From Gemmatimonadales bacterium (GTDB lineage Bacteria > Gemmatimonadota > Gemmatimonadetes > Gemmatimonadales > GWC2-71-9), in the NCBI GenBank assembly GCA_036556025.1, contig DATBKD010000005.1:13845-77844 (forward strand): DNA of 64,000 nt, written 5' to 3'. The notes beneath the pieces were generated by a model. It was not told the origin of the DNA. It made no database searches and saw only the letters and a list, made by a program, of their open reading frames with translations. The position numbers and the translations under genes are program-made. Positions within the stretch are counted from its first letter, which is position 1, and each line of letters starts with the position of its first letter. Positions 5,090-17,500 of this stretch are shown piece after piece.

Positions 5090-5105
5090 TACCCTGACGC
5101 CGGCA

Positions 5106-5735
5106 GTGCCGAGGTCGTTGCACCATGCGACCGTCTTCGGCGTCGTCGCGCTCTCCTGCCTGGTGCTCTTCGGTTGGCTCACCGCCGCGGTGGTGGCGCA
5201 GCGTACCCTGGCGTGGGATGAGCGGGTCATGCTTGCGGTCGCAGGACTGCGATCACCGGTGGTCACCTGGTGGATGAAGATCGTGAGTGCGGTGGGATCG
5301 GGAGCGGTCGAAGTCCCGGTCGGCCTGCTCCTCCTGTGGCGGCTCGTCTCGCGGGGCGCCCGGCCGGCGGCCTACGGCTACGCTTCAGCCTTGGTGAGCA
5401 GCTGGGCCCTCTACGGGCTCACCAAACTGCTGGTCCACCGTCCGCGACCACGAGTCATCTCTCATCTCGCCCATGATGCCGGCTGGTACTCCTATCCGTC
5501 GGGGCACACCATCCTCGCACCGCTGGTCTTCGTCCTCGGCGCCATCATCTGGACTCGAAGCTGGGCTCGACCGGAGGCCCGCCTGGGCCTGGTGCTGGCA
5601 GGCGTGAGCCTGTCCCTGGCAATCGCCGGTTCCCGAGTCTACCTCGGCGCCCACTATCCTACCGATGTCATTGGAGGTCTGCTGCTGGGTACTGCACTGA
5701 GCGCCGCATGGATGCCGCGGCTGACCGTGAACTAA
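5106..5735 (+). CDS. PAP2-family phosphatase (membrane)
   Basis: 209-aa ORF with a GTG start. PAP2 motifs are [14 protein letters not shown] and [13 protein letters not shown], and there are several hydrophobic segments. Confidence 0.85.
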
Positions 5736-6826
5736 CGCTCGATCACCGGTTCAACCGCGCGGCCCCAAAGAACCAGACGCGCAATCTCCTCTCCGATCTC
5801 TCGGGTTCCCAGCGACGGCGTCCCACTGATGGCAATGTCGGCAGTCCGGGCACCGGCAGCGAGGACGGCGGCGATAGCCTGCTCCACCGTGGCCGCCGCC
5901 TCGGGCAGGCCCAAGCCATATCGGAGCAGCATGGCGGCGCTGGCGATGGCCCCGATAGGGTTGGCCACCCCGCGGCCGGCAATATCCGGGGCGGAGCCGT
6001 GGACCGGTTCGAACAGACCGGGACCATCCCCGATGGAAGCGGAAGGCAACAGTCCCAGGGACCCGACCAGCACCGCCGCCTCATCCGACAGAATATCCCC
6101 GAAGAGATTCTCGGTGAGCACCACATCGAAGGCCGCCGGACTGGAGACCAGCCGCATCGCCGCGTAGTCGACATAGAGGTGCTCCAGCCGCACATCGGGA
6201 TAACCCTCAGCAACCCGGGTCACCGTTTCCCGCCAGAGCTGGGAGACCTCCAGTACGTTGGCCTTGTCCACTGAGGTCACCAGCCGGCGCCGGTTGCTCG
6301 CCGCCTCAAAGGCGACCCGCGCCACCCGCTCGATTTCCTCGACGCTGTAACGCAGAGTATTCACCGCGGCATTGGGGCCGAGGCTACGCGGCTCCCCGTA
6401 GTAGAGCCCACCGGTGAGCTCCCGCACGATGAGGAGATCGACGCGCTCAAGCCGCTCCGGTCTGAGGGGGGAGGCATGGCGCAGCGCGGGATACACGGCG
6501 ATGGGCCGGAGATTGGCGTAGGCACAGAGCAGCTTTCTCAGCGCGAGCAGACCGGCCTCCGGCCGCCGATTTCCTTCAGCTCGGCTCAGCGACGGATCTC
6601 CGACCGCTCCCAGAAGCACCGCATCCACCTGGGTGACCGCATTTCGGGTGACGGCGGGCAACGAGTCGCCCGTGAGAGCTACGCCGGCGGCCCCGATCGG
6701 GTATTCCCGCGTCTCGACGACGAACCCGAAGAGGTCGGCGGCCGCCTGAAGAACCCGAAGGGCCTCGGCGGTCACCTCCGGTCCGATCCCATCGCCGGGA
6801 AGCACCGCCAGAGAGAACCGTTTCAC
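5732..6826 (-). CDS. leuB: 3-isopropylmalate dehydrogenase
   Basis: 364-aa ORF. It has [10 protein letters not shown] near the N-terminus and [11 protein letters not shown], and its start overlaps the leuD stop by 4 nt. Confidence 0.95.
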
Positions 6827-7437
6827 CAGACCGGAACCGGTTGGTCGGCGGCACGACGCTGCTCGAACGCGGCGATTGCCGGTTCCAGTTGCAGCGTGCG
6901 CCCGATTTCGTCCAGACCCTGGAGCAACATCTCGCGGCGATAGGGATCGAGGTGGAATGGCGCCGCGAATCCCAGCGGGTCCTGGACTCGCTGCGCTCGC
7001 AGATCAACCGTGAGCTCATACCCCCCCTGCGCACTCAGCGCTCTCCGGCTCAACTCAGCGATGACGGACTCCGGCAACACCACCGGCAGCAAACCATTCT
7101 GACAGCAGTTGCCGTGGAAGATGTCAGCGAAAGAGGGAGCGAGGATGGCGCGAAACCCGTAATCGGCCAGTGCCCACGGCGCATGCTCTCGGGACGAGCC
7201 GCAACCGAAATTGGGACCGGTGATCAGAATGGTGGCTCCGCGGGCAGCGGGCTGATTCAGCTCGAACTCGGGATTGAGTGCGCCGTCGGCGAGATAGCGC
7301 CAATCATAGAAGAGGCAGGGGCCGAAGCCGGTGCGTTCGATCCGCTTCAAGAACTGCTTGGGAATGATCTGATCGGTATCGACGTTGGCTCGCGGCAGCA
7401 GTGCAACGCGACCGGAGTGGATTTCGAAGGGTTGCAT
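6823..7437 (-). CDS. leuD: 3-isopropylmalate dehydratase small subunit
   Basis: 204-aa ORF with an aconitase swivel-domain-like sequence ([15 protein letters not shown]). It lies between leuC and leuB. Confidence 0.93.
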
Positions 7438-7595
7438 ACGCCTCTCGATAACTATTCAACGCACCTTGGCATCGGAGGTCATCGATAACTTTAACGAAGA
7501 TCTACTAAGCTATTGTGATAACGGCACTTATATGCGGCGAATGAGATACGACTTGAAGCTGTATATTCACTGACGACGATCGCATATCTGCCGCA
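7438..7595 (-). other. AT-rich intercistronic spacer between leuC and leuD
   Basis: By hand count about 69 of 155 bases are G/C (~45%), against clearly GC-rich flanks. It contains short repeats: CGATAACT twice, and ATATGCG / CGCATAT plus TGCGGC / GCCGCA inverted pairs. Confidence 0.6.
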
Positions 7596-9002
7596 TTACC
7601 CTCGCATATGCTCTCGCACGTCGACCAGACAGCCTTCGATCGCTGCGGCCGCGGCCATCGTCGGACTCATCAGGTGCGTGCGCCCTCCCCTGCCCTGTCG
7701 TCCTTCAAAATTTCTATTCGACGTGGACGCGCATCGTTCACCGGGGGACAGAATATCCTCATTCATGCCGAGACACATGGAGCATCCGGGATTGCGCCAC
7801 TCGAAGCCTGCGTCAATGAAGATGCGATCCAACCCTTCGCGCTCGGCGGCGGCCTTCACCGACTGAGAGCCAGGCACCACCATCGCACGCACATGCCGGT
7901 TGACGGTTCGTCCTCGCGCGACCGCGGCGGCCTCGCGCAAGTCCTCCAGTCGGCCATTGGTGCACGATCCCAAAAACACTCGGTCCACTGGAAGCCCCCT
8001 CAGCGGTGTTCCCGGCCGGAGGTCCATGTAGTCCAGCGCGCGCCGATACGACTCCCGCTCCGCAGCAGACGGCGCCTCGGATGGGTCGGGAACTTGCTCG
8101 GTGATGTCGGCCGTCATACCGGGACTGGTTCCCCACGTCACCTGAGGACCCAAGGTTCCAGCGTCGATGAAAACGGACCGGTCGTAGTGGGCTCCCGGAT
8201 CGGGGTGGAGCTCCTGCCAAGCGCGAAGTACGGCCTCGCGGCGAGCGCCCTTGGGTGCCCGCGGCGTGCCGGCGAGATAGTCGAAGGTGACGGCATCCGG
8301 GGCGATCATCCCGGCCCGGGCGCCCGCCTCGATGGACATGTTGCAGATGGTCATCCGGCCCTCCATGGACAGGGCCGCGATGGCTTCTCCGGTGTACTCG
8401 ATAACGTGGCCGGTCGCACCCGCGGTCCCGATCCGGCGAATCAACCCGAGGATCAGATCCTTGGCCGACACGCCGGGCGCCAGCCGACCGCTGAAGTGAA
8501 TCTCCATGGTCCGCGGGCGGGACTGGACGATGCATTGAGTGGCGAGAACGTGTTCCACCTCGCTGGTGCCGATCCCGAAGGCCAACGCTCCGAATGCGCC
8601 ATGGGTCGAGGTGTGGGAGTCCCCGCAGACAATGACCATTCCCGGCTGCGTCAGCCCGAGCTCCGGCCCGATCACGTGGACAATCCCCTGCTCGGGGGCG
8701 CTGAGGTCGAACAGCTCTACCCCGAAGTCCCGGGCATTCCGCTCCAGCGCCTGCAGCTGGAGCGCGGCCGTCCGGTCGGCGATGGGGAGCCGGCGATCGC
8801 CGGTGGGAACGTTGTGATCCACCGTGGCCACGGTCAGATCCGGACGCCGCACGCGACGGCCGGCCAGCCTCAGACCCTCGAAGGCTTGGGGGGAGGTTAC
8901 CTCGTGCACCAAGTGCAGGTCCACGTAGAGCAGGGCCGGACCGTGGGGCCCCTGATGAACGACGTGTGAGTCCCAGACCTTCTCGAACAGCGTGCGCGCC
9001 AT
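7596..9002 (-). CDS. leuC: 3-isopropylmalate dehydratase large subunit
   Basis: 468-aa ORF of the aconitase family, with [23 protein letters not shown] and NRNFEGRQG. Confidence 0.96.
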
Positions 9003-9005
9003 GAT

Positions 9006-10100
9006 TCAACCGGAGACGCTGGCAGGCGAAGGCTGAGCGACAGGCTTGCGGCCCGGCTTGTCCGGCGCCAACGGGGGACTGACGGCGCCGGAGCGCTTTC
9101 CTTCCTCGGACCAGGGCATCATCGCCCGAAGCTCGGCGCCCACGCGCTCGATCTCATGGTGCTTGTCGGCCTTGCGCAGCCGCTCGAAGTTGGCTCGGCC
9201 GGCGCGGTTCTCGGTCAGCCACTCCCGGGCAAAGGATCCGTTCTGGATCTCGTCCAGAATGCGGCGCATCTCCGCGCGGGTCTCCTCCGTGATCACTCGT
9301 GGGCCGCGGGTGTAGTCCCCGTACTCGGCAGTGTCGCTGATCGAGTAGCGCATAAACTGCATCCCACCGCGGTACATGAGATCCACGATCAGCTTGAGTT
9401 CGTGCAGGCACTCGAAATAGGCCATCTCTGGGCGGTAGCCCGCGGCCGTGAGGGTTTCGAAGCCGGCTTTGACCAACGCCGTCACTCCACCACAGAGCAC
9501 CGCCTGTTCGCCGAACAGATCGGTCTCGGTCTCCTCCCTGAAGGAGGTCTCGATCACACCAGCCCGAGTACAGCCGATCCCCGCGGCGTAGGCCAGAGCG
9601 TTGGCCAGCGCCTGTCCGCTCGCATCCTGATGGATGGCCACCAGGGCCGGGACTCCCCTGCCGGCTTCAAACTCACTGCGGACCAGATGGCCCGGCGACT
9701 TCGGGGCGACCATGCTGACGTCCACCCCGGCGGGTGGCACGATCTCGCCGAAATGAATGTTGAACCCATGGGCGAACATCAGGGTCTTGCCGGGACCAAG
9801 CGCTTGCTGGATCCCGCCTTCGTACACCCCGCGAGCGTCCTGGTCCGGCACCAGCATCATGATCACGTCGGCTGCCGCGGCCGCCTCGGCCACCGGCCGC
9901 ACATCGAGCCCGGCGGCCCGGGCCCGGTCCCATGACGCACTGCCAGCGCGCAATCCGACGACCACGCGGGCACCACTGTCCCGCAGATTCAGCGCGTGGG
10001 CGTGCCCCTGGCTGCCGTAGCCGATGATGGCGAAGGCGCGGCCCGAGAGCCGCTGACGGTCCGCGGCGGAGTCGTAGAAGATGTGAACGGGCTGGGTCAT
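9006..10100 (-). CDS. ilvC: ketol-acid reductoisomerase (class I) with low-complexity C-terminal tail
   Basis: 364-aa ORF. It has [19 protein letters not shown] (Rossmann motif) and the knotted-domain sequence. About 30 extra Pro/Ser/Ala-rich residues sit at the C-terminus. Confidence 0.96.
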
Positions 10101-10200
10101 GGTCTCATCCAGTCTCAGAGTTCGTTGGGTCGTTGGATTGATTGCTGCCGCAAGTCGATAGTCACTCGTCGTTCGTCAGTAGAAGACCGACACCTTTCCT

Positions 10201-10683
10201 TCACCTACCAGCCTCTAATGCCACCGCTCCACTCCGAGCCACCTCGAGGACCTCGAAACGCTCGAGCGCGCGGATGCAGGAGAGGACGAAAGCCTCGGAG
10301 CCGGTGAGCTCTACGATCATCGCTTCAGGACTGTCGTCAACCACCGAAGCGTGATAAAGCTGGACGACGTCCAGCAGCTCACCGTAGCGCTCCGCTGGAG
10401 CGCGAACTTTGACCAGGGCCAGTTCCCGGGCCACACCGTCCTGCGCGGCAAAGGAGGTTGCTTCACGCACCCCGATCATCTTCTGCAAATGCTTCACCGC
10501 GCGATCCGCCGCGGAGTCGTCTGACTGAATCATGATGGTAAGCCTCGAAAGTCCAGGGGTCGCCGTGGGTCCCACGGCAATACTGCGCACGGGCAAGTTC
10601 CGCCGACGAATCAACCCGACGGCCCGGGTGAGCGTGATGAGGCGGTCCTCCAGCAGGACCGTAACGGCGTGGGGCGCACTCAT
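10201..10683 (-). CDS. ilvN: acetolactate synthase small (regulatory) subunit
   Basis: 160-aa ACT-domain protein (LLEDRLITLTRAVGLIRRRNLPVRSIAV). Its start overlaps the ilvB stop by 4 nt. Confidence 0.9.
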   Translation of the reverse strand: MSAPHAVTVLLEDRLITLTRAVGLIRRRNLPVRSIAVGPTATPGLSRLTIMIQSDDSAADRAVKHLQKMIGVREATSFAAQDGVARELALVKVRAPAERYGELLDVVQLYHASVVDDSPEAMIVELTGSEAFVLSCIRALERFEVLEVARSGAVALEAGR

Positions 10684-12383
10684 ACCGGCGCGAGCCGGGG
10701 CGAGATCGCTTCCGACTCGATCGGCTCGGACAGGGATGCACCCGGGGGAATCATCGGATAGACGTTGGCTTCCTGCTCGATCTGGAACTCGACCAGGGCA
10801 GGTCCCGGCCGGTCAATCGCCGCCTGGACTGCTTGCTCCACCTCGCCGGCAGTTTCCACTCGCCAGCCGGGAATCCCATACGCCTCCGCCAGGCGAACGT
10901 AATCGGGACTCCAGATCGGCGTCGCCGAGTAACGGCGTCCGTGGAAGAATTGCTGCCATTGGCGGACCATGCCCAGATATCCGTTGTTGAAGATCGCCAT
11001 CTTTACCGGGATGCCTTCCTGCACCATGGTGGCGATCTCCTGCATATTCATCTGAAACCCGCCGTCCCCGGAGATGGCCCATACCGGTTCGCCCGGCCGG
11101 GCCAGGACCACGCCCATGGCCGCGGGCACGGCAAAACCCATCGTGCCGAGCCCACCCGAGGTGATGTGGGTGTTGGGGCGCTGATAGCGGAAAAGCTTGG
11201 CAACCCACATCTGGTGCTGGCCCACGTCGGATACGATGGTGCAGCGCCCGGAGATCAGATCGATGGCCTCCAGGATCCCCTCGGGAGACAGTCCCCCCCG
11301 GAAGCTCTCGGCCCTGGGGCGCACGAAGCCAGCGATCTCCTCTCGCCACTCCTCGCAGGTGCGACTCGGCACCGCCTCGATCAGCCGACCCAGCAGCTCC
11401 CGGGCGTCGCCCACCAGAGCGACGGTGACCGGCACATTCTTGCCGATCTCGGAGGGGTCAAGCTCGAGGTGAATCAGTTTTGCGCCCCGGGCGAAACCGG
11501 CGAGGTTGCCGGTCACCCGGTCGTCGAATCGGAGTCCCACTCCAAGAATGAGATCGGCCTGCTGGATCGCGCGGTTGACGTGGACCTCGCCATGCATGCC
11601 GGGCATGCCGAGATGCAGGGGGTGGGACTCGGGAAAGCCGCTGATGCCGAGCAAGGTGGTGATGACCGGGATCCCGGTCTTTTCGGCGAACGCCCGGAGC
11701 TCGCCGTAGGCATTGCTCAGCACGATGCCGTGGCCGGCCATGATCAGAGGCCGCCTGGCCTCGGCGATGAGCTGGGCGGCGGCTTGTAAGGACGGTAAGG
11801 ACGGTAAGGCGTACCCTTCGGCAACCTTCCCGTCCTTCCCGTCCATTCCGCCTTTACCGCCCTTCCATTCCACCTTCTGGTTCTGCACGTCCTTGGGAAT
11901 ATCGATCAGGACTGGGCCGGGACGTCCCTCCTGGGCCACAGCGAACGCGTCCCGCACCACGTCGGCCAGCTCCCCGGCATCCTCGACCAGCCAGCTGTGT
12001 TTGGTGATCGGCTGGGTGATGCCGATGATGTCGGTTTCCTGGAACGCATCCCGACCCATCATCGCTCGCGCCACCTGTCCGGTAATGGCGACTACAGGGG
12101 TGTTGTCCATGTGCGCCGTGGCCAGACCGGTCACGAGATTGGTAGCGCCCGGTCCCGATGTCGCGACGCAGACTCCCGCTCGCCCGCTGGCACGAGCGTA
12201 GCCATCGGCGGCATGGGCCGCCGCCTGTTCGTGGCGGACCAGCACGTGGCGCAATCCCGGATGCTCGGGCAGTGCATGGTAAAACGGCATGATCGCGCCG
12301 CCGGGATACCCGAAGAGGATTTCGACTCCCTCGTCGAGGAGAGCCTGGCAGAGGATTTGGGCGCCGGTGAGATGCTCCGTCAT
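10680..12383 (-). CDS. ilvB: acetolactate synthase large subunit (ThDP enzyme)
   Basis: 567-aa ORF with SGPGATNLVTGLATAHMD, GGLGTMGFAVPAAMG and GDGGFQMNMQE. It contains the repeat element E2 in frame. Confidence 0.96.
   Translation of the reverse strand: MTEHLTGAQILCQALLDEGVEILFGYPGGAIMPFYHALPEHPGLRHVLVRHEQAAAHAADGYARASGRAGVCVATSGPGATNLVTGLATAHMDNTPVVAITGQVARAMMGRDAFQETDIIGITQPITKHSWLVEDAGELADVVRDAFAVAQEGRPGPVLIDIPKDVQNQKVEWKGGKGGMDGKDGKVAEGYALPSLPSLQAAAQLIAEARRPLIMAGHGIVLSNAYGELRAFAEKTGIPVITTLLGISGFPESHPLHLGMPGMHGEVHVNRAIQQADLILGVGLRFDDRVTGNLAGFARGAKLIHLELDPSEIGKNVPVTVALVGDARELLGRLIEAVPSRTCEEWREEIAGFVRPRAESFRGGLSPEGILEAIDLISGRCTIVSDVGQHQMWVAKLFRYQRPNTHITSGGLGTMGFAVPAAMGVVLARPGEPVWAISGDGGFQMNMQEIATMVQEGIPVKMAIFNNGYLGMVRQWQQFFHGRRYSATPIWSPDYVRLAEAYGIPGWRVETAGEVEQAVQAAIDRPGPALVEFQIEQEANVYPMIPPGASLSEPIESEAISPRLAPV
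11785..11867. repeat. E2: 9-nt-unit palindromic element located in frame inside ilvB
   Basis: The plus strand reads TGTAAGGAC GGTAAGGAC GGTAAGGCG (11785-11811), a centre tacccttcggca, then AACCTTCCC GTCCTTCCC GTCCATTCC GCCTTTACC GCCCTTCCA (11823-11867). On the ilvB sense strand it is translated as WKGGKGGMDGKDGK-VAEGY-ALPSLPSLQ. Confidence 0.85.
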
Positions 12384-12402
12384 CAGACAACCCTTCTTGG
12401 CA

Positions 12403-12435
12403 GAACTGCGTGAACAGGGTTTACGCGTTTCGCCA
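12403..12435. repeat. E8: minimal hairpin sharing both flanks with E4 (leuA-ilvB gap)
   Basis: GAACTGCGTGAAC (12403-12415) and CGTTTCGCCA (12426-12435) are identical to E4 positions 40447-40459 and 40493-40502. The internal hairpin is GCGTGAAC-agg-GTTTACGC (12408-12426). Confidence 0.75.
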
Positions 12436-12438
12436 ACA

Positions 12439-13995
12439 TCACACCCCCCACAGGTACACCGAGTTCAACGAGCTTGCCTCCAGCCGTTCGGCGTGGCGCG
12501 CCTTATTCAGCGCGAGCAGCAGGGCGCGGGCACTGGCCTCGACGATGTCGGTGGACGCCCCGTGGCCGGAGAGGGACTTGCCGTCGATCTTGGCCTGGAG
12601 AAAGACCTGTCCCACGCTGTCCCGCCCCGGGGTGAGGGAGCGAAGCGTCAGACTCAGGACCTCGATTTGATGGCCGATGATCTCGCTGATGGCGGCAAAG
12701 GCGGCCGCGATCGGTCCGTCACCGCTCCCCCGAGCCGAGCGCTCGCCGTTCCAGGGACCGGTCATCCGCACGTCCGCCGCCGGGGTGACGCTGCCACAGA
12801 CGACTCGCAGATGGGTGAGCTGGTACTCTTCAGGCGCGTCATGGAAAGCGCCGTGCACCAGGGCCAGCAGATCCTCGTCCAGGATCTCCCGTTTGCGATC
12901 GGCCAGGGCAATGAATTGGCGGTAGACCTCGGCGATCTGACCCTCATCCAGGTCATACCCCAGATCGCGGAACCGCCGTTCGAGCGCATGCCGACCAGAG
13001 TGTTTGCCCAGGACCAGCGTCGATCGCGGAATTCCCACCATCTCCGGGCGAATGATCTCGTAAGTCAGCCCGTTCTGGAGCATGCCGTGCTGGTGAATTC
13101 CGGCCTCGTGGGCAAAGGCATTGCGCCCGACGATGGCCTTGTTGGGCTGGGGAACGACTCCCGTGAGATAGGAGAGGAGCTGGCTGGTCCGATAGATCTC
13201 GCGGGATTCGACGTTACAGCGGAACGCGACCGCCGAGGACCGGACCTGGCCGGCCATGACGATCTCCTCCAGCGCCGCATTGCCGGCCCGCTCGCCGATG
13301 CCGTTTACGGTGCATTCGACCTGCCGGACGCCGGCCTCGATCGCTGCCAGGCTGTTGGCCACGGCCAGCCCCAGGTCGTCGTGACAGTGGGCGCTGAACA
13401 CGACCCGATCACTGCCCGGCACCCGGCTGCGAACGTCACGAAACATGGCGGCGTACTCATGCGGCAGGGCGTACCCGACGGTGTCCGGCAGATTGACGGT
13501 TCGGGCACCCTCCGCGATGGCCAGCTCCACCACCCGGCACAGGAAATCCGGATCGGAGCGGCTTGCATCTTCGGCCGAAAACTCGACGTCGTCGGTGAAG
13601 TGCCGGGCCCGGCGGATGGCGCTGCGAGCGAGATCGAGCACCTCGTCCCGGCTGATCCGCAGCTTTTCCCGGATGTGAAGGTCGGAGGTGGAGATGAAGA
13701 CGTGAAGTCGGCCACGGACCGCCTGACTCAGTGCCTCGCCGGCAAGATCGATGTCCCGCTCGTGGCAGCGGGCGAGGGCGGCGATCACCGGCCGGCGAAC
13801 CTCGGCCGCGATGTCCCGTACGCTGCGGTAGTCGCCCTCCGAGGCAGCCGGAAAACCGGCCTCGATCACATCCACGCCGAGCGCGTCGAGCTGTCGCGCG
13901 AGGCGCAGCTTCTCCTCCGCCGACAGACTGTTTCCGGGAGCCTGCTCGCCATCGCGCAAGGTGGTATCGAAGATCAGGACGTCCGTGGTGCCCAT
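12439..13995 (-). CDS. leuA: 2-isopropylmalate synthase
   Basis: 518-aa ORF with TTLRDGEQAPG and HCHDDLGLAVANSLAA, plus the C-terminal LeuA dimerisation/regulatory domain. Confidence 0.96.
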   Translation of the reverse strand: MGTTDVLIFDTTLRDGEQAPGNSLSAEEKLRLARQLDALGVDVIEAGFPAASEGDYRSVRDIAAEVRRPVIAALARCHERDIDLAGEALSQAVRGRLHVFISTSDLHIREKLRISRDEVLDLARSAIRRARHFTDDVEFSAEDASRSDPDFLCRVVELAIAEGARTVNLPDTVGYALPHEYAAMFRDVRSRVPGSDRVVFSAHCHDDLGLAVANSLAAIEAGVRQVECTVNGIGERAGNAALEEIVMAGQVRSSAVAFRCNVESREIYRTSQLLSYLTGVVPQPNKAIVGRNAFAHEAGIHQHGMLQNGLTYEIIRPEMVGIPRSTLVLGKHSGRHALERRFRDLGYDLDEGQIAEVYRQFIALADRKREILDEDLLALVHGAFHDAPEEYQLTHLRVVCGSVTPAADVRMTGPWNGERSARGSGDGPIAAAFAAISEIIGHQIEVLSLTLRSLTPGRDSVGQVFLQAKIDGKSLSGHGASTDIVEASARALLLALNKARHAERLEASSLNSVYLWGV

Positions 13996-14020
13996 ACGCG
14001 CTTTCTGTTCGGTGAAGGTG

Positions 14021-14054
14021 AAAAAAAAAGCCGCGGACTGTGAGGTCCGCGGCG
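14021..14054 (-). terminator. intrinsic terminator (attenuator) between the leader peptide and leuA
   Basis: The minus-strand RNA reads GCCGCGGAC-cucaca-GUCCGCGGC followed by nine U (A-run 14021-14029 on the plus strand). It ends 25 nt upstream of the leuA ATG. Confidence 0.8.
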
Positions 14055-14084
14055 CTGAGGATTCTGAGAGATGCTGCTGCTATC

Positions 14085-14186
14085 TCACGTGGCTCCGGTC
14101 GGCACGCCGTGGACCCCTGGCTTACCAATAAGGATGGTAAGCAGGAGGCTAAGGACGACGACGACGAGCGCGAGATTGAGCAGCAT
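14085..14186 (-). CDS. branched-chain amino acid leader peptide (33 aa)
   Basis: This is the tail of track ORF 14085..15584(-): MLLNLALVVVVLSLLLTILIGKPGVHGVPTGAT. Of the first 20 residues, 16 are Leu, Val or Ile. It sits between a promoter candidate and the terminator. An in-frame TTG 11 codons upstream is an alternative start. Confidence 0.7.
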   Translation of the reverse strand: MLLNLALVVVVLSLLLTILIGKPGVHGVPTGAT

Positions 14187-14253
14187 GGGTCCGATCGCGA
14201 TGGTCCGTTGAAACGACAACGGTGGTTGCCTCGAAAGAGCGGCAACGTTCCTG

Positions 14254-14282
14254 AGGCTAGCGTGTGCCCTGAGCACTGTCAA
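14254..14282 (-). promoter_or_regulatory. sigma70-like promoter candidate for the leader-leuA-ilv-leu operon
   Basis: On the minus strand: TTGACA (14282-14277), a 17-nt spacer, then TAGCCT (14259-14254). Confidence 0.45.
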
Positions 14283-14296
14283 GTGGGAATGACCGC

Positions 14297-14325
14297 TTGA
14301 CGGATGCGCCGTGATGCATAATAAT
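14297..14325 (+). promoter_or_regulatory. sigma70-like promoter candidate for gltB (divergent from the leu promoter)
   Basis: TTGACG (14297-14302) followed 16-17 nt later by TAATAA/AATAAT (14319-14325). It is back to back with the minus-strand promoter. Confidence 0.4.
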
Positions 14326-14430
14326 ACAGCCATGAGCTGCGCGATGCTTGCCCGAGTTCTTCCGATTAACGCTAATCTCGCCCGCCACGAGGGGGCGACC
14401 GGGTAAGCGAGCGCGTTTGCGCTATGTCCC

Positions 14431-14459
14431 GGCCCGCTCCCTAGGAGTGGGCCTTTTTT
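14431..14459 (+). terminator. intrinsic-terminator-like hairpin inside the gltB leader
   Basis: GGCCCGCTCC (14431-14440) pairs with GGAGTGGGCC (14444-14453) with one G-U pair, followed by TTTTTT (14454-14459). It ends 55 nt upstream of the gltB ATG. Two more hairpins precede it (TCGCCC/GGGCGA ~14389-14409; AGCGC/GCGCT ~14411-14424). Confidence 0.55.
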
Positions 14460-14513
14460 GTTGCCCCGACGCGGCCTCTCCGGCCGCTGGGGTCTCACAC
14501 CGCAGGAGGCACC

Positions 14514-17500
14514 ATGGCCGCCACTGGGCAGCGAATCCACCCGGCCGGTTCCCGTCAGTTCGACGCTCGCCACTCGGCCACCCCGGCGGAGCGTGCGCTC
14601 GATCCCTTCCGCGAGCATGACGCCTGCGGCGTTGGGTTGGTGGCCTGTGCCTCCGGCACCCGCTCTCATGAAGTCGTCTCGATGGCTCTCGAGGCGGTGG
14701 CCCGGGTAGCGCACCGCGGCGCCGCCTCCACCGACAACTCGGGGGATGGTGCCGGTCTGCTGACCCAGATCCCGCATCGCCTGTTCTACCGCGATGCCTA
14801 CCGTCTGGGCCTGCACCTGCAGCCGGGGCTTCCCTTCGGCGTCGGGGTCTTCTTTCTCCCGCGAGCGCCCGAGGCGCTGGCCGCCTCCGTCGAGCTGATC
14901 GAGGCGGTCCTGGCCGGGGACGGCGTGCCCTTCCTCGGCTGGCGCGATGTGCCGACCAATCTGGCGGCGCTCGGCCGAACGGCGTTGGAGTCCTGCCCCG
15001 TCATTCGCCAGGTCCTGGTAGGCCGGCCCGCGCTCGCGGCCGATGAGGAGGCGTGGGAGCGCGCGCTCTACCTTGCCCGACGAGAAATGGAGCGCCGGGC
15101 GGCGGAGCGCCAGCTGCCCGGGTTCTATGTCTGCTCCCTCTCCTGCCGCACCATCGTCTACAAGGCACTGCTCACCGGGACTCACCTCCCCGCCTTTTTC
15201 ACCGATTTCCGCTACCCCGAGTACGAGAGCGCGATCGCCGTCTTTCACCAGCGGTATTCGACCAATACGCTTCCCAGCTGGCCGCTGGCTCAACCGTTTC
15301 GCCTGCTGGCGCACAACGGCGAGATCAACACGCTCTGGGGCAACCGCAACAGCATGACCATGCGACAGCCGATGCTCGCGTCGCCGATCTGGGGCCAGAA
15401 GATCGAGCGGCTCCGCGACGCGATCTGGCGAGAAGGGAGTGACTCGGCCAGCCTCGACAACGCGATGGAGCTGCTGGTTCGTTCGGGGCGCGACCTGATC
15501 CATACCTCGATGATGATGATCCCGCAGGCGTGGGAGAAGTATTCCGATCTCGACCCCGCGGTGAAGGCGTTCTACGAGTACCACCAGTGTGTACTCGAGC
15601 CCTGGGACGGCCCGGCGGCGTTGGCCTTCACCGATGGCGTGCTGGCCGGCGCAGCGGTGGACCGGAACGGACTACGCCCCTGCCGCTACAAGGTCCGGGG
15701 CGACGGTCTGGTGGTAGCGGGTTCGGAAGTGGGCCTCGTCGACCTGGACCCGCGCGAGGTGGTGGAGTGCGGCAAGGTGGGGCCGGGAGAGATTCTGGTC
15801 GTCGACACTCGGCGACGCGAAGTGATCCGGAACGTGGATGCCAAGCGGGAAGTGGCGGGGCGGCGCCCCTACGCTCGCTGGGTGGCCCGCTACATGGCCA
15901 CGCTGGTGCCGGATCCGGCCAGGGTGCCACCGGTTCATACCGGGGAGGCCCTTCTTCGGCGGCAGCAGGTCTTCGGGTATGGCTTCGAGGACTTGCGCCT
16001 GGTACTCGATCCCATGGGCAGCGGCGGGGCAGATCCCGTCTGGAGCATGGGAGACGACACCCCAATCCCGCCGCTCTCGGCGGTGCCGCAGACCGTGTAC
16101 GCCTATTTCCGGCAGCGCTTCGCGCAGGTCACCAATCCGCCGATCGACTCCCTGCGCGAATCCATGGTGATGTCGCTGCGGATGCACCTGGGACGGAGAA
16201 GCTCGCCGCTGCTGGATCGGCCGTCCTACGCTCGAATGCTTCGTCTGGAGCACCCCGTGCTCCTGGCGGAAGAGATGGCGGCGTTGCGAAACGTTGCCGG
16301 CTTCTCCACGGTGACGCTCGATGCGGTGTTTGATGTCGCCCGAGGTGTGGATGGGCTCCATCCCGCGCTCACGGCCTTGCGACGGGCAGCGGAGCGTGCT
16401 GCCCGTCGGGGAGCGCGCATCCTGGTCATCAGCGACCGGGCCGCCGATGAACATCGAGCCCCGATTCCGATGCTGCTCGCGATCGGCGCGGTGCGACAGC
16501 ATCTGGTGCACACCGGCCTGCGCGCCCGCGTCGGACTGGTCGCCGAAGCCGGCGATGCCTTCGACATCCACCACTTCGCCACCCTCATCGGCTACGGCGC
16601 CGAGGCGGTGCATCCCTGGTTGGCGCTGGAGACGATCGAGGGACTGTTCAGCGAGGTGCGGGAACACTCGCGCCGCGAACAGGCCGACGCCGAGCCCCGG
16701 CCCAACCCCAGGGAGGCTCGCCATCGCTTCCGCACCGCCGCCGAGAAGGGACTGCTCAAGATTCTGTCCAAAATGGGAATCTCGACGCTCTCTTCCTACT
16801 GCGGAGCCCAGATTTTCGAGGTGCTTGGCCTGGGGCACGAGGTGATTTCGAGCTGCTTCTCCGGGACCGCGTCGCCCATCGGCGGCATCGGGTTCGAGGA
16901 GATCGCGGAGGACGTGTTGTCCCGCCACCGAGTCGCCTACGGCTCGGCCTCAGGATCGACGACATCGCTCCCGGACTACGGTCGAGTTCGCTTTCGCAAG
17001 GAAGGCGAGGACCACGGCTGGGCGCCGCCCGTCGTGGTCGCCCTGCAGCAGGCCATCAAAGCGCAGGGCGCCGAGGCCTACGGTGGCTTCCTGGTCAAGA
17101 ATGGCTCCCGTCGTCCCGCGGGTCCCCGCGATCTGCTCACCGTCCGGGGAGGCAATCCGATCTCACTGGACGAGGTGGAGCCTGCCGAGGCGATTCGACG
17201 CCGATTCATCTCCTCGGCCATGTCCCTCGGCGCCCTGTCGCCGGAGGCGCATGCCACGCTCTCCATCGCCATGAACCGGATGGGAGCCCGATCCAACTCC
17301 GGCGAGGGCGGCGAAGACCCGTTCAACTATCGCGCGCTTTCCGACGGAGACCGGGCGGACAACCGGATCAAGCAGGTGGCCTCCGCCCGGTTCGGCGTAA
17401 CCACGGAATACCTCATCAGGGCCGAGGAGCTGGAGATCAAGATCGTCCAGGGCGCCAAGCCCGGCGAAGGCGGTCAGCTGCCGGGTCACAAGGTCTCGGA

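Follow-up and report, generated by a model that had tools for sequence, protein, structure and literature searches.

A predicted leader-peptide transcription attenuator upstream of the leuA-ilvBNC-leuCDB operon in Gemmatimonadales

The leuA-ilvBNC-leuCDB operon of a Gemmatimonadales bacterium, read on the minus strand of a 64,000-nucleotide (nt) stretch of contig DATBKD010000005.1 (assembly GCA_036556025.1; hereafter the window, numbered from its first letter), is preceded by a leader that very probably acts as a ribosome-mediated leader-peptide transcription attenuator. Judging from sequence comparison and predicted folds, it would tune the seven genes to the supply of charged leucine (Leu), valine (Val) and isoleucine (Ile) tRNAs. 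The leader combines a short open reading frame (ORF), an intrinsic terminator, and a copy of the terminator 3' arm placed inside the ORF, and these parts occur together in all 74 leader sequences compared. Folding of the 236-nt window leader gave an energy of -96.9 kcal/mol (z = -7.2), and none of 200 shuffled sequences folded as well. The observed arrangement is more than chance. The attenuator is real, well conserved and useful for annotation, and its mechanism is a known one that will not surprise a specialist.

Relatives were collected by a one-genome-per-species scan with the LeuA protein, which returned 80 loci, all from metagenome-assembled genomes of Gemmatimonadales/Gemmatimonadota, with 77–94% LeuA identity to the window. 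The leader set comprised the window itself and the 73 relatives with approximately 200 nt or more upstream of leuA. These 74 leaders form alignment A2, in which helix support is expressed as the percentage of paired alignment cells. The original prediction for this region had proposed a promoter (TTGACA-N17-TAGCCT), a 33-codon ORF, a terminator upstream of leuA, and pairing at 10 of 11 positions between a segment in the ORF and the terminator 5' half. Each of these was recovered where it had been placed (Table 1). It had also named conservation in relatives as a check, and the peptide ORF and the hairpin upstream of leuA are present in 74 of 74 sequences.

Leader peptide and its Leu, Val and Ile codons

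The leader peptide of the window, MLLNLALVVVVLSLLLTILIGKPGVHGVPTGAT, contains 17 Leu, Val or Ile residues among its 33. Fifteen of these fall within the first 20 residues, one fewer than the 16 counted in the original prediction. Across the 74 sequences, an ATG-initiated ORF of 27–37 codons with a Leu/Val/Ile-rich first half starts between positions -171 and -204 relative to leuA. The peptides themselves drift, with 73 distinct sequences among the 74, while the ORF, its length and its bias persist. At 12 of the 14 aligned codons of the run, the second codon position is T in 76–100% of sequences, and variation in the hydrophobic run is greatest at the first position, where C, G and A specify Leu, Val and Ile, respectively. 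This three-base periodicity is the pattern expected from selection for NUN codons, unlike that expected from selection for an RNA helix.

Since the first 20 residues resemble a transmembrane helix, and the ORF is reported by a gene caller, we considered whether its product is a true membrane peptide, small and hydrophobic. Under this explanation, the hairpin would end the transcript of the peptide gene, and leuA would be expressed by leaky read-through or from another promoter. We compared the leaders with the most hydrophobic 16-residue windows in ordinary proteins of the same genomes, a small sample (n = 27). In their best 16-residue window, the leaders averaged 12.4 Leu, Val or Ile residues, compared with 8.3 ± 1.5 in the control. 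Leu, Val and Ile together made up 77% of the best leader windows, with 3% Ala and 0.9% Phe, while the control windows had approximately 52% Leu/Val/Ile, 18% Ala and 8% Phe. A generic membrane helix is thus a poor description of a composition this specific to Leu, Val and Ile, in which Ala, Phe and Gly are depleted.

Other observations also stand against a membrane peptide, beginning with the 73 different peptides. Indels have frameshifted the C-terminal third in three relatives (L009, L040 and L078) in which the nucleotides CCGCGGCG are retained, so the C-terminal part is not selected as protein. The in-ORF bases that copy the terminator arm are conserved as RNA at synonymous sites, as described below. 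The consensus scan found no promoter-like site between the leader hairpin and leuA, and at E values up to 10 the leader peptides of the window and two relatives had no relevant match in Pfam or NCBIfam. Taken with this evidence, the membrane peptide is very improbable.

A second question is whether the attenuator responds to all three amino acids. In the best 16-residue windows, Leu accounts for 48% of residues, Val for 22% and Ile for just 7.6%, and the Ile codons of many relatives number only one to three. Among leader Leu codons, the rare CTT makes up 35% compared with 7% in the genes of the window, a five-fold enrichment. This composition could be read as a ribosome-mediated attenuator that is in effect a sensor of leucine, or of leucine and valine, rather than a three-way one. 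Against that, runs of Val codons (three to four GUC) are among the best-conserved codons, the rare Ile codon ATT is enriched as well (42% in leaders compared with 18% in the genes of the window), and the operon includes ilvBNC, which serves Val and Ile synthesis too. We consider the narrower sensor the less likely reading, though by no means a negligible one. The enrichment of CTT and ATT fits the slow codons of classical attenuators, but the needs of RNA pairing could equally explain it.

Terminator, antiterminator and the position of the ribosome

The intrinsic terminator of the window has a predicted hairpin energy of -19.8 kcal/mol, and its U-tract ends 25 nt from the leuA ATG (13995). From 5100 to 14300, the consensus scan finds no other terminator-like site on the minus strand. 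Since the upstream gene, gltB, is divergent, the hairpin cannot terminate a preceding co-directional gene. The terminator stem is paired in 92.9% of alignment cells across 73 distinct sequences, and relatives carry 4–9 T within the 11 nt 3' of the stem.

The alternative partner of the terminator 5' arm (segment 3, CGCCGCGGACC) is segment 2, GGUCCACGGCG, a near copy of the terminator 3' arm (segment 4), located within the ORF; in the window, 10 of 11 positions of the two can pair. The invariant blocks of A2 are CCGCGGCG in segment 2, GCCGCGG in segment 3 and CCGCGG in segment 4, and the eight bases CCGCGGCG in the ORF are a copy of the terminator 3' arm. The leader is also a neat case of an 8-nt sequence (CCGCGGCG with its complement) that is held fixed at three sites, since every copy has to pair with another one.

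Synonymous sites point to the same constraint. In the alignment of 74 leaders, segment 2 covers Val-Arg-Gly-Val codons, and the synonymous third positions of these codons are identical in 45 of 45 genomes tested. As a control, we used 121 four-fold degenerate sites at invariant LeuA residues in the same genomes, for which the mean frequency of the major base was 0.61 and none of the 121 was invariant. Because the leuA sites vary and those of segment 2 do not, segment 2 is constrained as RNA. Pairing of segment 2 with segment 3 to form the antiterminator holds in 92.6% of alignment cells, compared with 34–49% when the partner columns are slid by 1–3. Together with the support for the terminator stem and the synonymous constraint, this bears out the mutually exclusive antiterminator (2:3) and terminator (3:4) that had been predicted.

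In two relatives (L060 and L073), a three-way compensatory change to U, A and U in segments 2, 3 and 4 preserves both helices. Such changes are few because the core of the three segments is invariant. RNAalifold on the whole alignment recovered the 7-pair terminator core alone, and the other helices were specified and then counted. The support for the predicted switch helices is one of conserved complementarity, with very little compensatory change.

Two further hairpins are predicted within the leader. The first lies in the ORF (CUCCUGCUUACC with GGUAAGCCAGGGG) and is a candidate pause or protector hairpin; its A2 columns (64–75 with 85–97) are paired in 81.9% of cells, and both sides change in 8 of 12 pairs. 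The second, a small hairpin over the stop codon, is paired in 77% of cells, with GAGAC/GUCUC of relatives replaced by GAGAU/AUCUC in the window. A different hairpin occupies its place in a more distant clade. The distance from the end of segment 2 to the stop codon is 17 nt in 58 of 74 sequences, a constancy which suggests that this spacing matters.

We also looked for a second copy of the segment 2-3-4 arrangement. There was none in the window by a strict motif, which also misses the window's own element on account of CCACGGCG in segment 2. Among the 80 loci, 41 contained the motif once at the attenuator, and L022 and L032 each had a single additional match.

To relate these helices to translation, we folded the leader with 30 nt masked as a ribosome. 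Equilibrium folds of the complete leader gave the terminator every time and were thus uninformative, so the folds were made on nascent transcripts that reach the terminator loop but not yet segment 4. In the ribosome-free window leader, segment 2 is sequestered in a long hairpin (-61.3 kcal/mol) and segment 3 stays available to the terminator. When the A site is placed at any codon from 3 to 19, segment 3 pairs with segment 2, and with the A site at codons 21–23, segment 2 is covered, segment 3 is free and no antiterminator forms. Stalls from codon 3 to about codon 17–19 yield the antiterminator in every one of the 74 sequences, with its partner centred on codons 24–28. The folds therefore give the switch expected by the original prediction for stalls within the Leu/Val/Ile run in 74 of 74 sequences. 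Its logic of stalling and read-through is borne out in part: a stalled ribosome leaves segment 2 free in all 74 sequences, but a block of the antiterminator by an unstalled ribosome is seen in the window at codons 21–23, and in most sequences not at the stop codon.

From these results, we propose the following sequence of events. Transcription would start at the conserved TTGACA-N17-TAGCCT promoter, and the 33 codons of the leader would be translated by a ribosome. If branched-chain amino acids run short, the ribosome would stall within codons 2–20 and leave segment 2 exposed. The stop-codon hairpin would then fold and draw segment 2 near segment 3, which on leaving the polymerase would pair with segment 2, block the terminator and allow transcription of all seven genes. 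When amino acids are plentiful, the ribosome would pass over segment 2 and reach the stop codon during synthesis of segments 3 and 4, so that the local 3:4 hairpin with its U-tract would win and transcription would end 25 nt before leuA. In the absence of translation, upstream ORF sequence would take up segment 2, again leading to termination, at least in the window. The decision would be kinetic, as the local 3:4 hairpin would fold faster than a long-range helix that has to close around a ribosome in or leaving segment 2, while under a stalled ribosome, segment 2 and the pre-formed stop-codon hairpin could capture segment 3 before segment 4 exists. The timing of these steps, what the two small hairpins do, the relative weight of the three amino acids and the behaviour in vivo are inferred.

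Several observations weigh against this reading. A Shine-Dalgarno-like trinucleotide precedes the leader ATG in just 39 of 74 sequences, and the U-tract is interrupted in many relatives. Covariation is weak, with an antiterminator covariation score no higher than that of shuffles. We searched for a conserved 1:2 protector helix among the 74 leaders and did not find one: the upstream partner of segment 2 lies between codons -3 and 13, depending on the sequence, and six or more of the eight core nt of segment 2 are paired upstream in just 55 sequences. In 49 of 74, the minimum-energy fold is the antiterminator even when no ribosome is present, which together with the variable partner means that a classical protector helix is not established outside the window. 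A masked ribosome at the stop codon also fails to prevent the antiterminator in most sequences, since segment 2 ends 17 nt upstream of the stop, at the trailing edge of a terminating ribosome, and is barely covered. The amino-acid-plentiful branch would thus depend on kinetics and sterics.

The ribosome-free folds also bear on a further explanation, in which the terminator/antiterminator switch is real but is set by an RNA-binding protein, a small-molecule riboswitch or uncharged tRNA, with the ORF incidental. Since the antiterminator forms in 49 of 74 sequences with no ribosome, a factor that stabilizes the terminator or sequesters segment 2 could be the real signal, and the patchy occurrence of Shine-Dalgarno-like sequences is in keeping with this. 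In contrast, no T-box was matched even at E values up to 10 in 13900–14600, where other Rfam families gave nothing but weak hits far below their gathering scores, and the Leu/Val/Ile bias agrees with the products of the operon. The ATG, the in-frame stop and the periodicity of T at the second codon position are all kept as the peptide drifts, which is unlike an aptamer or a protein-binding site. We judge a signal other than the ribosome improbable, and continue to favor ribosome-mediated attenuation.

Relation to known leaders

Leader-peptide attenuation is a textbook mechanism, and the leader of Escherichia coli ilvGMEDA (ilvL) is multivalent for Leu, Val and Ile. The Gemmatimonadales leader resembles ilvL in having a peptide of approximately 32 residues with a Leu/Val/Ile-packed N-terminal half and a tail containing Gly and Pro, an intrinsic terminator, an alternative antiterminator that uses the terminator 5' arm, and one attenuator for three amino acids. 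It differs in having no sequence relationship to ilvL detectable with Pfam, NCBIfam or Rfam, in its controlled genes (leuA-ilvBNC-leuCDB), and in the placement of the antiterminator 5' strand within the ORF, 17 nt before the stop, with no conserved protector helix found. The curated leader-peptide families of Pfam-A and NCBIfam include leaders of enterobacterial ilv and leu operons.

The leaders leuL and ivbL (of ilvBN) in E. coli and Salmonella work by a similar logic, as stalling at Leu codons, or at Val and Leu codons, relieves a terminator upstream of leuA or ilvB. Unlike these leaders, which carry a short consecutive run for one or two amino acids, the leader described here has 15 Leu/Val/Ile codons spread over 19 positions and matches no Rfam leader model.

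Attenuators of ilvB that involve an upstream ORF (uORF) include the Corynebacterium ilvB-II motif, the ilvB-OMG motif and the Leptospira ilvB motif (PMC10272879), and leader attenuators of leuA and ilvB have been reported or proposed in Actinobacteria (PMC1262725). Those motifs were found by comparative genomics, and like them, the Gemmatimonadales leader is lineage-specific, has a branched-chain-rich peptide with in-frame start and stop codons, and offers terminator and antiterminator alternatives. It differs from them in sequence and structure and in having leuA as the first gene, and ilvB-OMG was unmatched in the Rfam scan. As far as seen in the 80 loci, the element is confined to Gemmatimonadales.

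Fused ilv and leu operons under a single leader with conditional termination are also found in Firmicutes. In Bacillus subtilis, the ilv-leu T-box senses uncharged tRNA directly, and no T-box was matched here. The Staphylococcus aureus ilv-leu operon has a leucine-rich attenuator peptide (PMC5794164). Both share the single leader and the conditional termination with the operon described here; the Firmicutes order (ilvB...leuABCD) differs from the present one, in which leuA comes first.

At the gathering score, the 64-kb window had no Rfam match to the leader families (Leu, Thr/His/Trp/Phe, Lactococcus leu/phe), ilvB-OMG or T-box. In a search of 13900–14600 at E values up to 10, the only matches were weak ones (15–24 bits, compared with gathering scores of 41–112) to other families, mostly small RNAs. 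With scores this far below gathering, we rejected membership in the T-box, the known leader families and ilvB-OMG.

Gemmatimonadota is a phylum widespread in soil, but few of its members have been cultured and, to our knowledge, hardly any of its gene regulation has been characterized. A full-text literature search, with subscription-only surveys outside its reach, found no paper that links attenuation or leader peptides to Gemmatimonadetes, Gemmatimonas or Gemmatimonadota, in agreement with the earlier guess that the element is undescribed in this lineage. The leader would thus extend classical leader-peptide attenuation to Gemmatimonadota. Its promoter (with an unusual TAGCCT -10 box), leader ORF, antiterminator and terminator form a set of conserved parts ready for use in studies of the phylum. 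The alignment of 74 sequences could seed an RNA family, which would stop the leader ORF from being annotated as a hypothetical protein.

Promoter, operon and the divergent gltB leader

Conservation of the promoter boxes was assessed in 72 relatives, in which both are nearly invariant (Table 1). A consensus promoter scan did not call TTGACA-N17-TAGCCT, because TAGCCT agrees with TATAAT at just three of six positions. In five relatives (L002, L009, L024, L034 and L050), the TAGCCT/TAGGCT box ends 5–6 nt 5' of the leader ATG, which supports it as the true -10 and suggests that the leader ORF in these genomes is carried on a leaderless mRNA. In the other relatives, including the window, 50–90 nt of variable sequence are inserted between the -10 box and the ATG.

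Many relatives (e.g., L017, L041 and L057) have a conserved motif, GCATAAAGTT, between the -10 box and the leader ATG (columns ~140–155 of alignment A1). One clade (L064, L070, L074 and L075) has the motif as its reverse complement, AAGTTTATGC, and it is absent from the window. It might serve as another -10-like element or bind a protein.

Table 1. Coordinates of the leader elements, the operon genes and the divergent gltB leader in the window.
Feature	Position	Strand	Remarks
-35 box, TTGACA	14277..14282	-	Read in sequence; CTTGAC at least 90% conserved in 72 relatives
-10-like box, TAGCCT	14254..14259	-	17-nt spacer from -35; TAGCCT/TAGGCT with T, A, C, T nearly invariant in 72 relatives
Leader ORF, 33 codons + TGA	14085..14186	-	ATG at 14186, TGA 14087-14085; also called by the Joint Genome Institute (JGI) gene caller
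Regulatory Leu/Val/Ile codon run, codons 2-20	14126..14183	-	15 of first 20 residues Leu, Val or Ile
In-ORF hairpin, candidate pause or protector	14114..14147	-	14147-14136 with 14126-14114, predicted
Segment 2, antiterminator 5' strand	14105..14115	-	Codons 24-28; synonymous sites invariant
Hairpin over stop codon, GAGAU-loop-AUCUC	14068..14086	-	14086-14082 with 14072-14068, predicted
Segment 3, terminator 5' arm, common to antiterminator	14044..14054	-	Pairs with segment 2 or segment 4
Intrinsic terminator, 9-bp stem	14021..14053	-	GCCGCGGAC (14053-14045), loop CUCACA, GUCCGCGGC (14038-14030), U9 (14029-14021)
leuA	12439-13995	-	NCBIfam equivalog
ilvB	10680-12383	-	NCBIfam equivalog
ilvN	10201-10683	-	NCBIfam equivalog
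ilvC	9006-10100	-	NCBIfam equivalog
leuC	7596-9002	-	NCBIfam equivalog
leuD	6823-7437	-	NCBIfam equivalog
leuB	5732-6826	-	NCBIfam equivalog
gltB leader promoter, CGCTTGAC-N17-TGCATAATAAT (TTGACG-N17-AATAAT)	within 14297-14513	+	Conserved
gltB uORF, MSCAMLARVLPINANLARHEGATG	14332-14406	+	In relatives, 21-24 codons, ATG 5-8 nt after -10 box
gltB leader terminator + T6	14431-14453	+	Consensus scan; conserved

The genes downstream of the leader had been assigned as leuA-ilvBNC-leuCDB, with which NCBIfam agrees, and the seven-gene order is colinear in 42 of the 43 loci long enough to show all genes. The gene upstream of the leader is gltB by NCBIfam, and is divergent in 47 of 49 loci. Within the cluster (5732..13995), the minus strand shows no consensus site resembling a terminator or a promoter. 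This includes two apparent, unusually long gaps in the putative operon, of 158 nt between leuC and leuD (7438–7595) and of 100 nt between ilvN and ilvC (10101–10200). A 499-amino-acid GTG-initiated ORF (14085–15584, minus strand) that shares the frame of the leader and runs antisense through gltB was rejected as an artefact of high G+C content, and is not a gene.

The leuA-gltB intergenic region is 518 nt long, and its other half, the plus-strand leader of gltB (14297–14513), is equally conserved. This half has its own promoter, uORF and terminator. The uORF has conserved Asn codons, and Asn makes up 9% of its residues across relatives. It ends at a conserved GGG-TAA in 37 of the 43 relatives with the common -10 box, and the sequence at its 3' end, GGGAGCGACCGGG, is complementary to the terminator 5' arm. 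In mask folds with the ribosome at the last Asn codon, pairing of the terminator 5' arm with the uORF is seen in 36 of 39 sequences; with the ribosome at the stop codon, it is seen in just 12 of 40, a behaviour like that of an attenuator. The short distance from the -10 box to the uORF ATG suggests leaderless translation. The arrangement is absent from a more distant clade (L052–L080), and the gltB leader had no Rfam match at the gathering score in the scan of the 64-kb window.

We tentatively suggest, with the balance still somewhat against it, that the intergenic region holds two back-to-back ribosome-mediated attenuators, one of a lineage-specific Leu/Val/Ile family absent from Rfam and the other an undescribed one for gltB. 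If true, the phylum would couple both nitrogen assimilation and branched-chain amino acid synthesis to tRNA charging by leader-peptide attenuation.

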